DNA from: Dehalococcoidia bacterium
Lineage (GTDB): Bacteria > Chloroflexota > Dehalococcoidia > SZUA-161
Direction of reading: 5' to 3'
DNA: 64,000 bases
NCBI GenBank assembly: GCA_011174795.1
Contig: DUEY01000002.1
Location: 11,013-75,012, forward strand
The notes beneath the pieces are model-generated. The model had not been told where the DNA came from, did not search any database, and was given only the letters and a program-made list of their open reading frames with translations. Of this stretch, positions 5,026 through 53,398 are shown piece by piece. The translations under genes were made by a program, and so were the position numbers. The first letter of the stretch is position 1, and the number at the start of each line of letters is the position of its first letter.

Positions 5026-6384
5026 ATGAAAAGCCAGAAGAAGAGCCCGGACCTCTTCCGACACGTCAGCGACAGACAGCTGGCGAATGATGCGCCCCTC
5101 GCCGCCCGCATGAGGCCGAGGAATTTCGCCGAGTTCGTGGGCCAGGAGCACATGATAGGGGAAGAGCACGTGCTGAGGAAGAGCATCGAGGCCGACCAGC
5201 TTCCCTCAATCATCTTCTGGGGCCCGCCTGGGAGCGGCAAGACCACCCTCGCCCATATCATCGCCAGTGTCACCAAGTCGCATTTCAGCCCTATATCCGC
5301 GGTGGCGGCAGGCGTCGCTGACCTGCGCCGCGTGGTGGACGAGGCTATGGAGCGCCGCGGCATGTACCAGCAGAGGACCGTCCTCTTCATCGACGAGATA
5401 CACCGCTTCAACAAAGCGCAGCAGGACGCCATACTTCCTTACGTCGAGAACGGCACCATCACCCTGATAGGCGCTACCACCGAAAACCCCTCCTTCGAGG
5501 TAATCGCACCCCTGCTCTCGCGCTGCCGCGTGTTCACCCTGAACGCGCTCACCGATGAACAGGTCAGGCTCATAGTCCAGCAGGCGCTGGAAGACAAAGA
5601 GCGGGGCCTGGGGAATATGAAGGTAGAACTGGACGACGACGCCCTTGACTTCCTGTTAGTTATGTCAAATGGAGACGCCAGGGTTGCGCTCAATGCCCTG
5701 GAGCTCGCCGCCACAACAGCCCTGCCCTCGAAGGACGGCAAGCGCCGTATTAAGCTCAGCGACATCGAGGATGCCCTCCAGCACCACGCCCTGCTCTACG
5801 ATAGAGCCGGAGAGGAGCATTACAACATCATCTCCGCCCTTCATAAGTCGCTGCGGGACTCCGACCCCGACGGCGCTCTCTACTGGCTGGGGCGGATGCT
5901 GGAGGCCGGAGAGGACCCTCTTTACATCGCCCGGCGGCTGGTCAGGTTCGCCTCAGAGGACGTGGGCATGGCCGACCCCCAGGCGCTGGTCATCGCCACC
6001 TCCGCCCAGCAGGCAGTTCATTTCATCGGCATGCCGGAAGGCAACCTGGCACTGGCTCAGGCTGTGGTCTACCTCGCTACCGCGCCCAAGAGCAACTCCC
6101 TGTACAAGGCCTACACCAGCGTACAGCAGGACGTGGAGAAGACGAGAGCTGAGCCGGTCCCGCTCCACCTGCGCAACCCCGTAACGCCCCTGATGAAAAA
6201 GATGGGCTACGGCAAAGACTATAAGTACGCCCACAATTTCCCGAGGCATTTCGTCAGGCAGCAGCATCTCCCCGACCGGCTCAAAGGAAGGACATACTAC
6301 GAGCCCAGCAACCAGGGCTTCGAGCAAGAGATCGAGGAACGACTCAAGAAGTGGCGCAGCAAGGGAAAAGAGGACGTAAAGTAG
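5026..6384 (+). CDS. rarA: replication-associated recombination protein A (AAA+ ATPase)
   Basis: Walker A motif GPPGSGKTTLA, then the MgsA/RarA C-terminal region (LHKSLRDSDPDGALYWLGRML). Confidence 0.9.
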   Translation: MKSQKKSPDLFRHVSDRQLANDAPLAARMRPRNFAEFVGQEHMIGEEHVLRKSIEADQLPSIIFWGPPGSGKTTLAHIIASVTKSHFSPISAVAAGVADLRRVVDEAMERRGMYQQRTVLFIDEIHRFNKAQQDAILPYVENGTITLIGATTENPSFEVIAPLLSRCRVFTLNALTDEQVRLIVQQALEDKERGLGNMKVELDDDALDFLLVMSNGDARVALNALELAATTALPSKDGKRRIKLSDIEDALQHHALLYDRAGEEHYNIISALHKSLRDSDPDGALYWLGRMLEAGEDPLYIARRLVRFASEDVGMADPQALVIATSAQQAVHFIGMPEGNLALAQAVVYLATAPKSNSLYKAYTSVQQDVEKTRAEPVPLHLRNPVTPLMKKMGYGKDYKYAHNFPRHFVRQQHLPDRLKGRTYYEPSNQGFEQEIEERLKKWRSKGKEDVK

Positions 6385-50070: not shown

Positions 50071-50397
50071 CTAGTTTTTAGAAAACAGACTCGCGATATC
50101 TCCCTCGAAATCCTTCAAGAGATTATGTACATCCAGAACGTCATCTATCCCCACCACCTCGCCATCAGTAAATCTATCGTACTCATCCTCGGTAAAATCG
50201 GTAATAACTTCGGCAATAGTGCCATCCTGAACAACTGCGGCTATCAACCCCTGAGTTCGACAGGAGTTGCAGTAGACACTGAGAACCCAAAGCCCGTCCT
50301 CCTGGTCGATCACCTTGATATTCGACATATCATAGCGCTGACCACAAATCCCGCACTCTACTTTAGAAAAAAGCCGCTTCAGGAATGACTCACGCAT
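50071..50397 (-). CDS. hypothetical zinc-ribbon protein
   Basis: CGICGQ...CNSC motifs. Immediately downstream of the bifunctional nuclease gene on the same strand. Confidence 0.45.
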   Translation of the reverse strand: MRESFLKRLFSKVECGICGQRYDMSNIKVIDQEDGLWVLSVYCNSCRTQGLIAAVVQDGTIAEVITDFTEDEYDRFTDGEVVGIDDVLDVHNLLKDFEGDIASLFSKN

Positions 50398-50411: not shown

Positions 50412-50939
50412 CTAAGAGTCCGATTTTCCCTTGTCAAAGTCCGAAAGGTCAAGACTCTCGATAAAATCGCGGAATGCAGACATCTGCTCCAGTTCCTCAG
50501 GAGGGATATCACGTACTGGTGTCGGCTTTCCAGTCTCCGGATCGATAACAATCCCCGCCTTCTCGAGCACGGCTTCCTCCGCGTAGATGGGCGATTGCGT
50601 CCTCACTGCCAGCGCTATAGCATCGCTGGGACGTGAATCCACTTCCATCTGCTTGCCGTCAACAGCAAGGATGATCTTTGCGAAGAAGGTATCGTTTTGC
50701 AGGTCACAAACGACAATCGATTCCACAGTGGCTCCGAGGGTGCTGATAACAGAGCCCAACAGGTCATGCGTTAAGGGACGGGGCACCTGATAATCCTGGA
50801 GTTTAACGGCTATAGCATCAGCCTCAGCGGGGCCTATCCAGATTGGCAGGTAGCGTTCCGCTTCCTTCTCTTTGAGGATAACCACCCTCTGGTAATTGAG
50901 AGTGCTCACACGTATACTCTCAATAACCATCTCAAGCAT
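50412..50939 (-). CDS. bifunctional nuclease family protein (DUF151/BFN domain)
   Basis: LPIWIGPAEADAIAVKLQ...RPLTHDL is typical of the BFN domain. Confidence 0.7.
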   Translation of the reverse strand: MLEMVIESIRVSTLNYQRVVILKEKEAERYLPIWIGPAEADAIAVKLQDYQVPRPLTHDLLGSVISTLGATVESIVVCDLQNDTFFAKIILAVDGKQMEVDSRPSDAIALAVRTQSPIYAEEAVLEKAGIVIDPETGKPTPVRDIPPEELEQMSAFRDFIESLDLSDFDKGKSDS

Positions 50940-51039
50940 AACCCACCCCTCGCAGGAAGTATATTTTACCTTATGGGCAGCCTCAGTGTCAAGGTTGACA
51001 AAGCTGAGCCTTTGGGCTATATTTTTACACTGCCAGCAA

Positions 51040-51100
51040 GGGCGGTTAGCTCAGGGGTTAGAGCGCCCCGATGAATCGGGGAGGTCACTGAGCGAGACCC
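51040..51100 (+). pseudogene. tRNA-Val 5' fragment duplicate (positions 1-27 identical to the downstream tRNA-Val, then a substitute stem-loop and no T-arm or acceptor 3' strand)
   Basis: gggcggttagctcaggggttagagcgc is identical to 51411-51437. It is followed by CCCCGATGAATCGGGGAGGTCAC and then diverges. Confidence 0.6.
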
Positions 51101-51101
51101 C

Positions 51102-51350
51102 ATGTATTATGTATATATTCTAAAGAGTCAGAGAAAAGGTGGCTTCTACACCGGCTTCACTAAAGATGTAGTGAAAAGGCTCTCGCAACATAATACCGGA
51201 AAGGTCAAGTCAACTAAACATTTAATACCTTTTGACCTTGTTTACAGCGAAGCTTACCAAAATGCTGCTGAAGCAAGAAAGCGAGAGTATTATATCAAGT
51301 CCCAGAAAAGCCGGCAGTTCATAGAACAATTAATAGCGAAGGCTAGTTAG
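51102..51350 (+). CDS. GIY-YIG nuclease family protein (small, standalone)
   Basis: MYYVYILKS..GGFYTGFT..R..QHN matches the GIY-YIG N-terminal motif. 82 aa. Confidence 0.8.
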   Translation: MYYVYILKSQRKGGFYTGFTKDVVKRLSQHNTGKVKSTKHLIPFDLVYSEAYQNAAEARKREYYIKSQKSRQFIEQLIAKAS

Positions 51351-51366
51351 CTTAGCAGTTTGAAAG

Positions 51367-51391
51367 CCCCGATATAATCGGGGTAGGTCAC
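51367..51391. repeat. stem-loop CCCCGATATAATCGGGG-T-AGGTCAC, imperfect direct repeat of 51066-51088 (CCCCGATGAATCGGGG-A-GGTCAC), flanking the GIY-YIG gene
   Basis: Both copies are perfect 7-bp inverted repeats followed by GGTCAC, a sequence also present in the variable/T-stem region of tRNA-Val. Confidence 0.6.
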
Positions 51392-51410
51392 AGGTAATCA
51401 TTGACAAGAA

Positions 51411-51486
51411 GGGCGGTTAGCTCAGGGGTTAGAGCGCTGCGTTGACATCGCAGAGGTCACTGGTTCAAATCCAGTATCGCCCACCA
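51411..51486 (+). tRNA. tRNA-Val (anticodon GAC)
   Basis: Full cloverleaf with acceptor GGGCGGT/ATCGCCC, anticodon loop TTGACAT, T-arm ACTGGTTCAAATCCAGT and encoded CCA. Confidence 0.9.
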
Positions 51487-51631
51487 TTCATTCTACTTCG
51501 TTCATAGTGTCCCACCCAGTTACCACCAGATAAGGGATTTCAATTCTCTTGTGCAGAGAGACAAAATAATGTAATATTTTTAAAGTGAACCTCTCGTTCC
51601 ATACGGGCGGGAGGTTCTGCTTTCGAATCCA

Positions 51632-53398
51632 TTGAAAGGTTGTGTGGTGCCTGGCAGGAAAATTGAGGACGCTCAGAAAGCAGAGCAACGTGAGGGCACA
51701 CGCCACTCGGCAGCTCATATCATGGCCGAAGCGGTATTATCGCTCTTTCCCGAAGCCAAATTCGGCATAGGACCCGCCACAGCCGACGGCTTCTACTATG
51801 ACTTCGACCTGCCACGTGCACTGACGCCAGAAGACCTGGCTACCATCGAGACCAAGATGCACGAGAGCATAGCCTCTAATCATCCTTTCTTCAGAGAGGA
51901 AGTCAGCAAGGATGCAGCCCGCGAGATGTTCAGCGCCCAGCCCTATAAGCTCGAGCTTATCGATGAGTTGCCCGATGATACAGTTACGGTTTACCGGCAC
52001 GGCTCCTTCGTAGACCTCTGCCGTGGCCCTCACGTGACCTCGACGGGTGAGATCAAGGCCTTCAAGCTGCTGAGCATTGCCGGAGCTTACTGGAGAGGCG
52101 ATGAGCAACGCCCTATGCTGCAGCGGATATATGGCACCGCCTTCGACACCGCGGAAGAGTTGGAGAGCCATCTCGAGAAGCTGGATGAAGCTGCAAAGCG
52201 CGACCACAGGAAGCTGGGTAAGTCGCTTGACCTGTTCAGCATCCACGATGAGGCAGGAGCAGGGCTCGTCTACTGGCACCCAAAGGGTGCCCTCATACGC
52301 AACATCATCGAGGACTTCTGGAAAAGCGAGCACTTCAAGCGGGGCTACGATATCATACACACACCTCATATCGCGAAAATCGGCCTTTGGCAGAGCAGCG
52401 GTCATCTGGAATTCTACAAAGATAGTATGTATCCACCCATCGACATCGAGGGGCAGAACTATCTGATAAAGCCGATGAATTGCCCCGGCCATATCCTCAT
52501 ATATAAGACACAACTCCGCAGCTATAGACAGTTACCACTTCGCTGGGCAGAACTGGGTACCGTTTACCGCTGGGAAAGGTCCGGTGTCCTCCACGGGCTA
52601 ACCCGCGTACGAGGCTTCACCCAAGACGATGCCCACATATTCTGCCGCCCCGACCAACTGGAGGACGAAGTAGTCGGTGTGGTAGAATTCGCCTGCTTCA
52701 TGCTCCGCATCTTCGGCTTCGATGAATACGATGTCATGCTCTCCACACGTCCTGAGAAATACGCGGGCACTATCGAGGTCTGGGACCAAGCAACAGATAC
52801 GTTAAAGAGAGCGCTCGAGCGCCTCCACATAGACTATGAAATAGACCCTGGAGAAGGTGTATTCTACGGCCCTAAGATAGATATCTCGCTCAGAGACTCA
52901 CTTGGGCGAACCTGGCAAGGACCTACCACGCAGGTAGATTTCAACCTGCCCGAGCGGTTCGACGTCAACTACATCGGCGATGATGGACTTGAGCACCGGG
53001 TAGTGATGATACACCGCACCGTTCTGGGAAGTATGGAACGCTTCCTGGGCTGCCTCATAGAGCACTATGGCGGCGCATTTCCGCCGTGGCTTGCACCTAT
53101 CCAGGTAGAGGTAATACCCATAGCCGACCAGCATCTGGACTATGCGCACAAGGTAGCCCTTGAGCTTGAGAGCGAGGGGATAAGGGTTGAAACAGATGAG
53201 CGCAGCGAGAGGATGAACTTGAAGATACGCGATGCACAGCTTCGGAAGGTGCCCTACATGTTGATTGTAGGCAATGAAGAGGAGGCAAGCTCGACGGTCT
53301 CGGTTCGCCTCCGTAATGGCGAGAACTTAAAATCCCAATCCCTATCCCAGTTCAAGTCCCTCGTTAAGGTAATCGTGGAATCAAAGAAAAACGTTTGA
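51632..53398 (+). CDS. thrS: threonine--tRNA ligase (lacks the N-terminal TGS domain; start codon uncertain)
   Basis: Editing-domain HSAAHIMAEAV and class II catalytic core. Confidence 0.85.
   Translation: MKGCVVPGRKIEDAQKAEQREGTRHSAAHIMAEAVLSLFPEAKFGIGPATADGFYYDFDLPRALTPEDLATIETKMHESIASNHPFFREEVSKDAAREMFSAQPYKLELIDELPDDTVTVYRHGSFVDLCRGPHVTSTGEIKAFKLLSIAGAYWRGDEQRPMLQRIYGTAFDTAEELESHLEKLDEAAKRDHRKLGKSLDLFSIHDEAGAGLVYWHPKGALIRNIIEDFWKSEHFKRGYDIIHTPHIAKIGLWQSSGHLEFYKDSMYPPIDIEGQNYLIKPMNCPGHILIYKTQLRSYRQLPLRWAELGTVYRWERSGVLHGLTRVRGFTQDDAHIFCRPDQLEDEVVGVVEFACFMLRIFGFDEYDVMLSTRPEKYAGTIEVWDQATDTLKRALERLHIDYEIDPGEGVFYGPKIDISLRDSLGRTWQGPTTQVDFNLPERFDVNYIGDDGLEHRVVMIHRTVLGSMERFLGCLIEHYGGAFPPWLAPIQVEVIPIADQHLDYAHKVALELESEGIRVETDERSERMNLKIRDAQLRKVPYMLIVGNEEEASSTVSVRLRNGENLKSQSLSQFKSLVKVIVESKKNV

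Follow-up and report, generated by a model that had tools for sequence, protein, structure and literature searches.

In a genome of the Dehalococcoidia, a gene for a minimal GIY-YIG nuclease lies between a truncated duplicate of the 5' end of a tRNA-Val gene and the intact gene itself. The locus is probably a free-standing homing-type selfish element, consisting of a gene for an ~80-aa GIY-YIG protein and a cognate palindrome (H), in which the intact tRNA has been kept. It is located in a 64-kb stretch of DNA, referred to here as the window, and its features are listed in Table 1.

Table 1. Features of the tRNA-Val/GIY-YIG locus, in window coordinates.
Feature	Position	Strand	Basis or remark
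Promoter-like site, sigma-70-type, TTGACA-17 nt-TATATT	50995..51023	+	Consensus scan, 11/12 matches
Native tRNA 5' flank, 12 nt, CACTGCCAGCAA	51028..51039	+	Repeat family D2
Copy A part 1, tRNA-Val positions 1-27 (acceptor 5' strand and D-arm)	51040..51066	+	Exact duplicate
Palindrome H_A, CCCCGAT-GA-ATCGGGG (CCCCGATGAATCGGGG)	51066..51081	.	In place of the 17-nt anticodon arm
AGGTCACTG, tRNA-Val positions 44-52 (variable loop and T-stem start)	51082..51090	+	End of tRNA-derived remnant
Linker AGCGAGACCCC, directly 5' of ATG	51091..51101	+	Complementary to remnant 5' part
GIY-YIG nuclease gene, 82 aa, stand-alone	51102..51350	+	Pfam PF01541 match
Copy B part 1, decayed duplicate of tRNA-Val positions 1-26/27, GGCTAGTTAGCTTAGCAGTTTGAAAG	51341..51366	+	Family D1
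Palindrome H_B, CCCCGAT-ATA-ATCGGGG (CCCCGATATAATCGGGG)	51367..51383	.	Fold -9.9 kcal/mol
T+AGGTCAC, copy B remnant of tRNA 44-50	51384..51391	+	Family D4
Spacer, 19 nt, site of second ORF in intact tandem arrays	51392..51410	+	Last 12 nt resemble native 5' flank
Intact host-type tRNA-Val(GAC)	51411..51486	+	ARAGORN; Rfam 69 bits

A sequence-only reading of this stretch had described an exact copy of the first 27 nt of tRNA-Val, continued by a substitute stem-loop and a GGTCAC tract and lacking a T-arm and an acceptor 3' strand, and this description holds. The 27-nt 5' end of tRNA-Val has two matches in the window, with 0 mismatches, against 0.00 expected from shuffled sequences, and copy A is without the 3' half of the T-arm and the acceptor 3' strand. 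The fragment does not turn out to be a divergent but complete tRNA, as ARAGORN and Rfam (E up to 10) call none there. The repeat shared by copy A and the intact gene reaches 12 nt 5' of the tRNA (51028-39 versus 51399-410, 9/12 identical) and, as family D2, spans 51028-51074 and 51399-51445 at 85% identity. H_A, the hairpin of which folds at -9.2 kcal/mol, is an element-specific module of the 'CCCGAT' type. Since the linker is complementary to the 5' part of the remnant, 51040-51101 can form a single long hairpin with H_A at its tip (MFE -29.2 kcal/mol, z = -2.8). A Shine-Dalgarno sequence at normal spacing is absent from this linker, and in the related locus L174 its position is occupied by AGCAAGACCCC.

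The GIY-YIG gene is the sole ORF inside an insert of ~370 nt. A third, degenerate copy of the tRNA 5' end (copy B, 51341-51391) shares 74% identity with copy A over 51339-51373 (family D1), and both the C-terminus of the ORF and its TAG stop (51348-50) come from copy B, with TAG being the equivalent of U8-A9-G10 of the tRNA. The second stem-loop and GGTCAC tract noted before the intact tRNA are present, but their interpretation as a separate element flanking the cassette does not stand; they belong to decayed copy B, which makes the locus a tandem array of two units, the second of which has lost its ORF. The window represents a late stage, with unit 1 intact (copy A, H_A and the ORF) and unit 2 consisting of copy B and H_B, followed by the native tRNA-Val. 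Compared with L174, the window has ~70 nt extra at copy B. The spacer was considered as a relic of the 3' end of the second ORF and this was rejected, with an in-register match of 7/19 positions, against 11/19 for the native 5' flank, including 9 of the final 12. An analogous second unit with a deleted ORF is present in L181, and there the spacer is clearly a relic of the ORF 3' end.

The TTGACA/TATATT site is the native tRNA-Val promoter, now upstream of truncated copy A, and the consensus scan found it to be the sole promoter-like site on the + strand of 50900-51700. The same arrangement is found ahead of the plain tRNA-Val in L102, an empty site, and ahead of copy A in L174-L176. By the same scan, the intact tRNA-Val has no promoter-like site of its own and is thus presumably transcribed jointly with copy A and the ORF.

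Integration at tRNA genes classically leaves partial tRNA duplicates as a scar, and conventional explanations of the locus would be an att-type scar of an integrase island or prophage, or a tRNA group I intron with a homing endonuclease. Bacterial tRNA group I introns can indeed carry such enzymes (PMC13011429). Taken as a general account these explanations are highly improbable, and for the window they are refuted. The insert has no tyrosine or serine integrase, the nuclease being its only ORF, and the tRNA 5' end is duplicated, not the 3' end, of which there is no second copy in the window; an integrase island was rejected on these grounds. The functional tRNA is continuous and uninterrupted according to ARAGORN and Rfam, and there is no ribozyme core, which rules out a group I intron; no such intron or other Rfam family was found in 50900-51650 (E up to 10) or in 8 related loci (gathering score).

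Related Dehalococcoidia carry the same site in empty, nested and tandem forms. Empty sites, with a plain promoter-tRNA-Val-ThrRS order, are found in L102, L094 and L095 and contrast with the filled sites of the window, L174, L001 and L002. In L102, a BFN gene with a product 90% identical to that of the window is followed by the same promoter, a plain tRNA-Val 1 nt apart from that of the window, and then ThrRS; for L002, the corresponding empty form is seen in L094 and L095. In filled sites the native promoter and 5' flank lie directly against the remnant, and in empty ones directly against the intact tRNA. Relatives differ in whether this one conserved site is occupied, a polymorphism by which free-standing homing endonuclease genes are recognised. 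L174 is a nested single copy (remnant-ORF-tRNA-spacer-3' remnant), L001 and L002 have two tandem units each, and L175 and L176 have at least two, encoding an identical protein. These empty sites, the tandem doublets (L001, L002, L175, L176), the nested L174 and relatives at 16 tRNA isotypes in many phyla support the original proposal of a selfish cassette that integrated at tRNA-Val, duplicating part of it, and that may have tRNA genes as its targets.

In every lineage, positions 1-27 of the remnant equal those of the intact tRNA, including lineage-specific D-loop variants, and this lineage-by-lineage identity would support concerted evolution. Within the Dehalococcoidia clade, the ORF and the neighbouring BFN gene have diverged to a similar extent, with nucleotide identities of 82-86% and 77-82%, respectively. 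An invade-decay-loss cycle is typical of homing endonuclease genes, but from these sequences the clade pattern looks more like long-term vertical maintenance, which counts against the homing-type model. Description of the window as a 'recent insertion' is therefore not applicable, with the cassette mostly vertically inherited in the clade and under purifying selection.

The initial identification of a GIY-YIG ORF 3' of copy A was confirmed by profile searching, in which the 82-aa protein matched Pfam GIY-YIG PF01541 over residues 1-71 (61.6 bits, cut-off 22.6, E = 8.8e-17). Residues Y5, Y16, G18, R26, H30 and E62, which correspond to the catalytic set of the superfamily (Tyr of GIY, Tyr and Gly of YIG, an Arg, a His or Tyr and a metal-binding Glu), and K66 are invariant across 44 relatives. 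An AlphaFold2 model (pLDDT 93.6) agrees with the superfamily fold of a three-stranded sheet with flanking helices, shows the order beta-beta-alpha-beta-alpha-alpha and has Foldseek matches to 1zg2, SLX1 and I-TevI, with ranks 1-8 taken by UPF0213 proteins and SLX1. Sequence matches were to 1zg2 (E = 1.6e-19), 1ywl (1.2e-15) and SLX1 (1e-5 to 1e-6, including 1.6e-6), and the I-TevI structures 1ln0/1mk0 were matched only weakly. The window protein is thus predicted to be a minimal, single-domain UPF0213/SLX1-like nuclease; GIY-YIG fills 71/82 residues and a separate DNA-binding domain, as found in I-TevI and Seg proteins, where it confers specificity for a long site, is absent. The protein has no NCBIfam match, and membership of a defence system is ruled out by the absence of PADLOC defence-family matches for the protein and its neighbours. 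The ORF is under purifying selection, and its pN/pS of 0.19-0.31 (about 0.2), the invariant catalytic residues and the confident modelled fold support a probably functional nuclease.

According to the homing-type model, the nuclease would break the DNA of a plain tRNA gene within or close to the arm later held by H, here the anticodon arm. Homologous recombination would repair the break with an allele carrying the element as template, and conserved tRNA sequence would act as homology arms. This would leave a displaced tRNA fragment marked by H, followed by the ORF and by a complete tRNA that keeps tRNA function. The ORF would use the tRNA promoter and take its stop codon from tRNA U8-A9-G10. 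Subsequent recombination between tRNA repeats could amplify the unit in tandem, remove the 3' remnant and delete internal parts. It is in this conditional sense that cleavage by the enzyme and its site, copying through recombination, joint transcription and any role of H are discussed here. Counterpoints are that the protein is limited to a catalytic domain, which makes recognition of a specific site harder to explain, and that cutting of plain tRNA genes should make the retained intact tRNA of every host a target too. In addition, simple homing does not explain the nested direct repeats [17-27]H[44-52] or the use of a constant, conserved palindrome as the interrupter.

Most tRNA-adjacent loci of the family have a partial tRNA copy beside a GC-rich palindrome. 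Palindromes of the 'CCCGAT' type occur in L001, L002 and L174-L181, at Val, Pro and Ala tRNAs. Proteins associated with the same palindrome type share 53.9% identity, versus 44.3%, with 0/2000 permutations as extreme, and palindrome type agrees with that of the nearest protein neighbour in 36/43 cases. These comparisons support the view that palindrome types are distributed according to protein relatedness, irrespective of host phylum and tRNA isotype. To compare H as an RNA hairpin with H as a DNA palindrome, mismatches were counted in imperfect hairpins around all loci (53 G-T versus 26 A-C), in a scan that also takes up terminators and chance hairpins and is given no weight here. In the mirror-image arrangements of L038, L022 and L041, H is downstream of the ORF and always within a tRNA remnant, which weakens the case for H as a 5'-UTR or operator element.

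The co-variation of H types with protein clades is also compatible with a transposon-like mechanism, to which we assign a minor but appreciable likelihood. Here, a nuclease homodimer would read H, or its hairpin/cruciform, and H or a split H would be the terminus of the element. Cut-and-copy, in place of allelic homing, would occur into hairpin-forming tRNA arms, and closed H would represent ORF-less miniatures, by analogy with REP/RAYT. Consistent with this, inverted repeats of 14-22 bp bracket the ORF exactly, both in the P0017 loci and in L020, and a recently exchanged unit ends at these repeats. The position of H within tRNAs varies (20-23, 35/36, replacing 28-43, 57/58), even within the single locus L089, the direct repeats of the nested forms are roughly centred on H, and solo palindromes of the same type are found away from tRNAs in L105 and L046; those in L105 have no tRNA pieces, which also counts against the homing-type model. 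Moreover, in structure the protein is closest to SLX1 nucleases, which are structure-specific. Against a transposon-like mechanism, no transposase (DDE or HUH) or recombinase domain was found at the locus, and we know of no GIY-YIG hydrolase with strand-transfer activity. H is not dispersed, with only two copies in the 64-kb window, both at the locus, and its interpretation as a REP-like repeat of the genome was rejected for the same reason. The tRNA parts of remnants are host-specific and equal to the resident tRNA, and one exchanged block (L033/L046) ends at tRNA borders, so that the homologous recombination of the homing-type model fits better.

The association with tRNA genes was surveyed at 80 genome loci, one per species, picked by protein similarity alone. 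In a species-level genome set, tblastn upheld more than 516 family members among the first 600 listed pattern matches, and cultured carriers include Zunongwangia pacifica (L013) and Luteirhabdus pelagi (L016). A relative of the ORF is located <=130 nt from a same-strand tRNA in 60/80 loci. For 49/80 primary ORFs, a same-strand tRNA starts -60 to +110 nt from the stop, and 8 further loci have a same-strand tRNA just 5' of the primary ORF; taken together, these 57 loci, scored by their primary ORFs, include 16 tRNA isotypes, and 100/108 of their tRNAs are co-oriented with the ORF. The commonest tRNA offset is -9 from the stop, placing the stop codon within tRNA positions 8-10. A partial copy of the adjacent tRNA is present in 37/60 tRNA-adjacent loci and is abutted by a palindrome in 29/37, and more than one ORF occurs in nine loci.

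Among proteins that are closely related, the isotype of the partner tRNA switches freely. L003 and L004 are ~99% identical only over the inverted repeat-ORF-inverted repeat, inside divergent tRNA-Ala genes, and L033 and L046 share a ~520-nt block, 98% identical, that is bounded by the outer tRNA-Cys borders and has unrelated flanks. Both pairs, which are relatives outside the clade of the window, have a near-identical element in divergent backgrounds, and the blocks point to recent exchange. A phage origin is countered by a viral collection of 2.9 million contigs, in which just one relative, a distant one, was found.

A further alternative is that a YhbQ-like nuclease has been domesticated for the benefit of the host, being transcribed together with tRNA genes and serving, for example, to maintain or amplify them or to guard those that are integration hot spots, with the partial copies as by-products of local recombination. 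The low pN/pS over substantial divergence, the largely vertical inheritance in the clade, the tight coupling to tRNA transcription units with strict co-orientation and the gains of phages from SegB-driven tRNA amplification would all suit such a role. However, the gene is missing from the same site in close relatives with no visible compensation, copy number differs between near-identical strains, and identical elements reside within unrelated flanks. Together with the free change of partner isotype and the lack of a PADLOC match, these observations make a host-beneficial function improbable, and the selfish, homing-type element remains the favoured interpretation.

By analogy, the closest precedent for such an element appears to be SegB of phages T4/T6. 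SegB is a free-standing GIY-YIG homing endonuclease within the T4/T6 tRNA gene cluster, which cuts tRNA-gene DNA and, through double-strand breaks and homologous recombination, drives tandem [tRNA + segB] amplification that relies on homology of the tRNA 5' end to the 3' end of segB; a 28-aa C-terminal truncation has been reported in the amplified segB copies (PMC2330249; PMC13096335). The window gene is similarly embedded at a tRNA gene and forms tandem repeats of tRNA and nuclease gene. In contrast to SegB, which is larger and has a C-terminal region past the catalytic domain, the window protein has only the UPF0213/SLX1-like catalytic domain in its 82 aa. Moreover, the family described here is cellular, with that single relative among the viral contigs, whereas SegB is phage-borne and multi-domain, and it differs from SegB in having a cognate palindrome and H-marked truncated tRNA copies, or a complete tRNA nested in a split one.

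The best sequence and fold matches, UPF0213/YhbQ/YazA (PDB 1zg2, 1ywl) and the nuclease domain of SLX1, share the minimal GIY-YIG core. In the literature searched, neither UPF0213/YhbQ/YazA nor SLX1 is reported to be linked to tRNA genes, to have a palindrome or to be mobile. SLX1 is structure-specific, cutting branched and stem-loop DNA, but requires SLX4 and has an extra RING/PHD domain. I-TevI and other intron-encoded GIY-YIG enzymes share the catalytic fold of the window protein and the selfish strategy of interrupting a gene that is both conserved and highly expressed; unlike I-TevI and tRNA group I introns, the window has no ribozyme and no DNA-binding domain, and its functional tRNA is uninterrupted. 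REP/RAYT systems and MITEs are similar in that a short GC-rich palindrome family flanks and co-varies with a small nuclease gene, and in the existence of ORF-less copies. REP/RAYT, however, uses an HUH Y1 transposase, whereas the enzyme here is GIY-YIG, is associated with tRNA genes, and has palindromes that are not dispersed in the window. A likeness is also seen in fungal mitochondrial GIY-YIG cases, where an essential gene is entered, the displaced segment is resupplied and the old segment persists as a nearby pseudogene fragment. These cases differ in involving protein-coding genes with a duplicated 3' end, no palindrome module and multi-domain enzymes. In 1994, Paquin, Laforest and Lang reportedly described one such mobile GIY-YIG ORF of fungal mitochondria, in Allomyces atp6, that brings a replacement piece of the host gene.

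No published account of a cellular, tRNA-linked minimal GIY-YIG element was found in open-access papers and bioRxiv, an absence that is not proof of novelty. It is conceivable, although we hold this only tentatively, that the loci constitute a previously unrecognised, phylum-spanning class of mobile element. Such a class would combine the smallest known stand-alone GIY-YIG protein (~80 aa) with a cognate interrupted palindrome as dimeric recognition/cleavage site, would spare its host by regenerating the tRNA that it splits or by carrying a complete copy of it, and would be a hidden source of tRNA gene duplication, tandem tRNA arrays and tRNA pseudogenes in bacteria. The same reading may extend to the rRNA-operon tRNA-Ala of candidate-phyla-radiation (CPR) bacteria.

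If the model is true, thousands of genes known from annotation only as 'GIY-YIG nuclease family protein' would represent selfish elements with a specialisation on tRNA genes, in hosts including Bacteroidota, Chlorobiota, Chloroflexota, Omnitrophota, Patescibacteria and others. Their existence would explain truncated tRNA copies, nested and split tRNA genes and tandem tRNA-ORF arrays that mislead annotation. An 80-aa nuclease with a 15-20-bp palindrome would be one of the most compact nuclease systems known with specificity for a sequence or a structure. The recently demonstrated principle of SegB-tRNA amplification would reach beyond phages to cellular genomes, and duplicating or carrying the target would be a third mode of residing in an essential gene, beside introns and inteins.

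The sequence-only reading held that the first 27 nt of the tRNA-Val gene are duplicated upstream of a small GIY-YIG nuclease gene, and that the duplicate (copy A) continues with a substitute stem-loop and the GGTCAC tract. All of this was borne out, the copy passing into a palindrome and then into tRNA positions 44-52. A second stem-loop, placed by that reading beyond the ORF, also exists together with its AGGTCAC tract, but it belongs to a third, decayed tRNA 5' copy (copy B) that had been missed. The final codons of the ORF fall within copy B, and so does its TAG stop, which corresponds to U8-A9-G10 of the tRNA. The 12 nt preceding copy A and the 12 nt preceding the intact tRNA-Val are alike at nine positions, and the promoter-like site upstream of copy A is the sole one on the + strand in a scan of 50900-51700. 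Transcription of the ORF probably starts from the tRNA promoter. In the window's lineage, nucleotides 51040-51101 can be folded as one long hairpin ending at the AUG (-29 kcal/mol, z = -2.8).

Features of the tRNA-Val locus and its surroundings in the window
Feature	Position	Strand	Remarks
108-aa protein gene	50071-50397	-	after BFN; two CxxC pairs, no Pfam match; CoaE next
Bifunctional-nuclease-domain (BFN) gene	50412-50939	-	PF02577, 4.7e-42; divergent from tRNA promoter region
TTGACA-17-TATATT	50995-51023	+	promoter-like; upstream of copy A
Copy A, part 1	51040-51066		exact duplicate of first 27 nt of tRNA-Val; 0 such matches expected by chance
CCCCGATGAATCGGGG	51066-81		in place of 17-nt anticodon arm
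AGGTCACTG	51082-90		tRNA positions 44-52
Linker			11 nt, between AGGTCACTG and the ATG of the ORF
ORF, 82 codons	51102-51350		Pfam GIY-YIG, E = 8.8e-17
Copy B, stretch matching copy A	51339-51373		74% identity to copy A (repeat finder); continues into CCCCGATATAATCGGGG + AGGTCAC
tRNA-Val(GAC)	51411-51486		sole tRNA found here by ARAGORN and Rfam
GC-rich hairpin CCTCTCG...CGGGAGG + T-rich tail	51575-51625		between tRNA-Val and ThrRS start

The hairpin downstream of tRNA-Val, which has counterparts at the equivalent place in the related loci L102, L002, L094 and L095, is probably a tRNA terminator or a thrS leader element. It was not flagged in the terminator scan and gave only a weak ohsC-like Rfam match (E = 0.15).

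Among close relatives, the window's site occurs in three states: tandem filled, nested filled and empty. In the tandem loci L001 and L002, two perfect units of ~303 nt (in the order tRNA 1-27, palindrome, tRNA 44-60, ORF) precede the intact tRNA-Val, and the TAG of the following tRNA copy serves as the stop of each ORF. Two further tandem loci, L175 and L176, share their protein with L174, but in them the ORF is followed directly by a second tandem unit. The nested locus L174, whose protein is 86% identical to the window's and which has the same CoaE, 108-aa and BFN neighbours, contains one unit and the intact tRNA, a 34-nt spacer, and then a 3' remnant made up of the 3' part of the D-arm, the palindrome and tRNA 44-76 with CCA. 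A Dehalococcoidia MAG encodes a protein with 100% identity to the window's own. The window has ~70 nt more than L174, namely copy B and a spacer, and an ORF-deleted second unit of this kind is also present at the tRNA-Ala(CGC) of L181; the window's locus is therefore a two-unit array that has lost its second ORF. The sequence-only reading had proposed looking for empty sites and for further cassette copies. Further copies were found at many other tRNAs as well as in the tandem and nested loci, and a scan of metagenome contigs for the downstream ThrRS gave plain tRNA-Val sites in L102, L094 and L095. In L102, where the BFN protein is 90% identical to the window's, the same TTGACA/TATATT promoter is followed by a plain tRNA-Val, differing from the window's by 1 nt, and then by ThrRS. 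L094 and L095 have an opposite-strand tRNA-Ala(GGC), the same conserved flank upstream, then a plain tRNA-Val and ThrRS, which is the empty form of L002. Where the site is filled, it is the truncated copy that adjoins the native promoter and flank, so the displaced 5' part occupies the former gene start, with the functional gene behind the ORF.

The BFN, 108-aa and CoaE trio is kept beside the cassette in L001 and L174-L176, and does not belong to the element, since at least BFN also adjoins the empty site L102. In the stretch downstream of tRNA-Val (window 51487-53398, L174 2143-3203, L001 1983-4918), ThrRS is found in the window and L002, an opposite-strand histidine-kinase-like gene in L174 and thiolase/MaoC genes in L001; such variation among close relatives marks the locus as a rearrangement break point. 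At L166, another ThrRS-linked tRNA cluster, tRNA-Cys and tRNA-Val(GAC) flank a distant GIY-YIG homologue (~509-739, 26% identity), with palindromes CTGCCTGCCGGCAGGCAG at 256-273 and 5348-5365; it looks as though another clade of the family had settled independently at this tRNA.

Seven residues of the protein are invariant across 44 relatives, among them the GIY-YIG catalytic set Y5, Y16, G18, R26, H30 and E62, and the AlphaFold2 model is confident (pLDDT 93.6). In both sequence and fold the protein comes closest to UPF0213 proteins (1zg2, 1ywl) and to the nuclease domain of SLX1, matching the catalytic domain of I-TevI less well, and 82 aa leave no room for a DNA-binding domain. Values of pN/pS of 0.19-0.31, at pS 0.18-0.56 (window, L174, L001, L002), indicate that the ORF is maintained by selection, and its divergence is similar to that of the neighbouring BFN gene, suggesting mainly vertical inheritance in the window's clade. 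That the gene has been domesticated for a host function is considered improbable.

The association with tRNA genes extends across the family. A GTDB set with one genome per species was scanned with the family alignment, and tblastn confirmed 516 of the 600 matches listed, giving at least 516 relatives; the loci analysed were the best 80 of these, selected on protein similarity alone. Their hosts include Bacteroidota, Chlorobiota, Omnitrophota, Planctomycetota, Patescibacteria and MAGs labelled Gammaproteobacteria. A same-strand tRNA starts between -60 and +110 nt from the stop of the primary ORF in 49 of the 80, most commonly at -9, such that the stop coincides with tRNA positions 8-10, and lies solely just upstream in another eight. 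Chance adjacency was estimated at near 0.2%, assuming ~1 tRNA gene per 50 kb. Sixteen isotypes are represented around the primary ORFs of these 80 loci, and 100 of 108 tRNAs are co-oriented with the ORF. When every ORF copy is counted, 60/80 loci have an adjacent intact tRNA; a partial copy of that tRNA lies nearby in 37 of the 60, abutted by a GC-rich perfect palindrome in 29 of the 37. Two or more ORF copies are present in 9/80. The parts are arranged as remnant with palindrome, ORF and tRNA; as the mirror image (three units in L038, for example); or nested, with a split outer tRNA around the ORF and a complete inner tRNA (L036 Glu, L177-L180 Pro, L174 Val, L033/L046 and the P0017 loci). Nested forms contain direct repeats centred on the palindrome. 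The gene split in the P0017 loci, tRNA-Ala(UGC), belongs to an rRNA operon, with tRNA-Ile upstream and 23S rRNA downstream. On the AT-rich, CPR-like contigs of this group (L003 2945-3421, L004 2946-3412, also L005-L012), the split falls at anticodon position 35/36, and the insert comprises a GIY-YIG ORF within 22-bp inverted repeats together with a second, complete tRNA-Ala within its own long inverted repeat.

Several palindrome families were distinguished: the window type, CCCCGAT-N3-ATCGGGG; CCTGCCTGCCGGCAGGCAGG; a doublet of TCAGCC-N3-GGCTGA with TCCGCC-N3-GGCGGA; CCCCGCC-N3-GGCGGGG; and GTCTGGC-N3-GCCAGAC. Protein identity is 53.9% between loci with a common type versus 44.3% without (0 of 2000 label permutations as large), and the type equals that of the nearest protein neighbour in 36 of 43 cases. 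One type is common to Flavobacteriia, Chlorobiota, Peribacteria and Saccharibacteria, at tRNA-Arg, Phe and Leu; the window type accompanies tRNA-Val, Pro, Ala(CGC), Ala(UGC), Lys and Ser. Since type follows protein across isotypes and hosts, the palindrome moves with the ORF, whereas the tRNA-derived parts are host-specific; on sequence comparison, palindrome and ORF have been shown to be co-inherited. A transposon-like mechanism, with the palindrome as putative site of the enzyme or terminus of the element, is possible but rather doubtful.

Palindromes also occur in other settings. At L105, a related ThrRS locus, two intergenic palindromes of window type (GTCCCGAT-N3-ATCGGGAC; 1588-1606 and 1676-1694) lie 88 nt apart, with no tRNA pieces or GIY-YIG gene nearby, and may be ORF-less solo copies. 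Downstream of tRNA-Cys in L089 (1835-1956), a 45-nt unit of tRNA positions 38-48, palindrome GTCTGGCGAAGCCAGAC and an acceptor-3'-like piece is repeated three times in tandem; upstream of the ORF, the palindrome stands in place of other tRNA positions (24-33). In L021 (1240-1308), an ORF-less full-length pseudo-tRNA-Cys, with CCCGTCTCAGACGGG in place of positions 39-56, lies just upstream of an intact tRNA-Cys and GIY-YIG gene.

Recent exchange is evident between some loci. L003 and L004 encode an identical protein. Their ~99% identity begins at the anticodon-loop junction and covers the 22-bp inverted repeat, ORF and second inverted repeat; the outer tRNA-Ala halves, inner tRNA and flanks diverge. 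L033 (Moranbacteria) and L046 (Parcubacteria group) have in common a ~520-nt block, 98% identical, whose limits are the 5' and 3' ends of the outer split tRNA-Cys, with unrelated flanks on both sides, as would be expected of homologous replacement limited to the tRNA gene. Within Dehalococcoidia, remnant positions 1-27 are identical to the resident tRNA, down to D-loop variants peculiar to each lineage (window, GGGGTTAG; L001, GTGGTAAG; L002, GTTGGTAAG with GAGTG), despite ORF differences of 8-18%. This suggests that remnant and tRNA gene continue to undergo gene conversion.

For the window, an integrase scar at the tRNA gene and a tRNA intron were both excluded. The favoured reading, held with moderate confidence, is that the cassette is a free-standing homing-type element. 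The nuclease would break a plain tRNA gene in the region taken by the palindrome in remnants, and repair from the element-bearing allele would copy palindrome, ORF and tRNA, with conserved tRNA sequence as homology arms and a working tRNA retained by the host. Recombination between repeated tRNA segments could then convert nested to tandem forms, amplify units and delete ORFs, the window representing the ORF-deletion stage. Phage SegB provides an experimental precedent, with GIY-YIG-driven, recombination-dependent tandem amplification of units of tRNA and nuclease gene (PMC2330249; PMC13096335). In open-access papers and preprints, no description was found of a cellular tRNA-linked minimal GIY-YIG element, and GIY-YIG genes go unmentioned in a recent survey of Patescibacteria tRNA introns. 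SegB already exemplifies both the selfish logic and the pairing of GIY-YIG nuclease with tRNA; the chance is substantial that the palindrome, the minimal nuclease and the replacement tRNA together constitute a class of their own.
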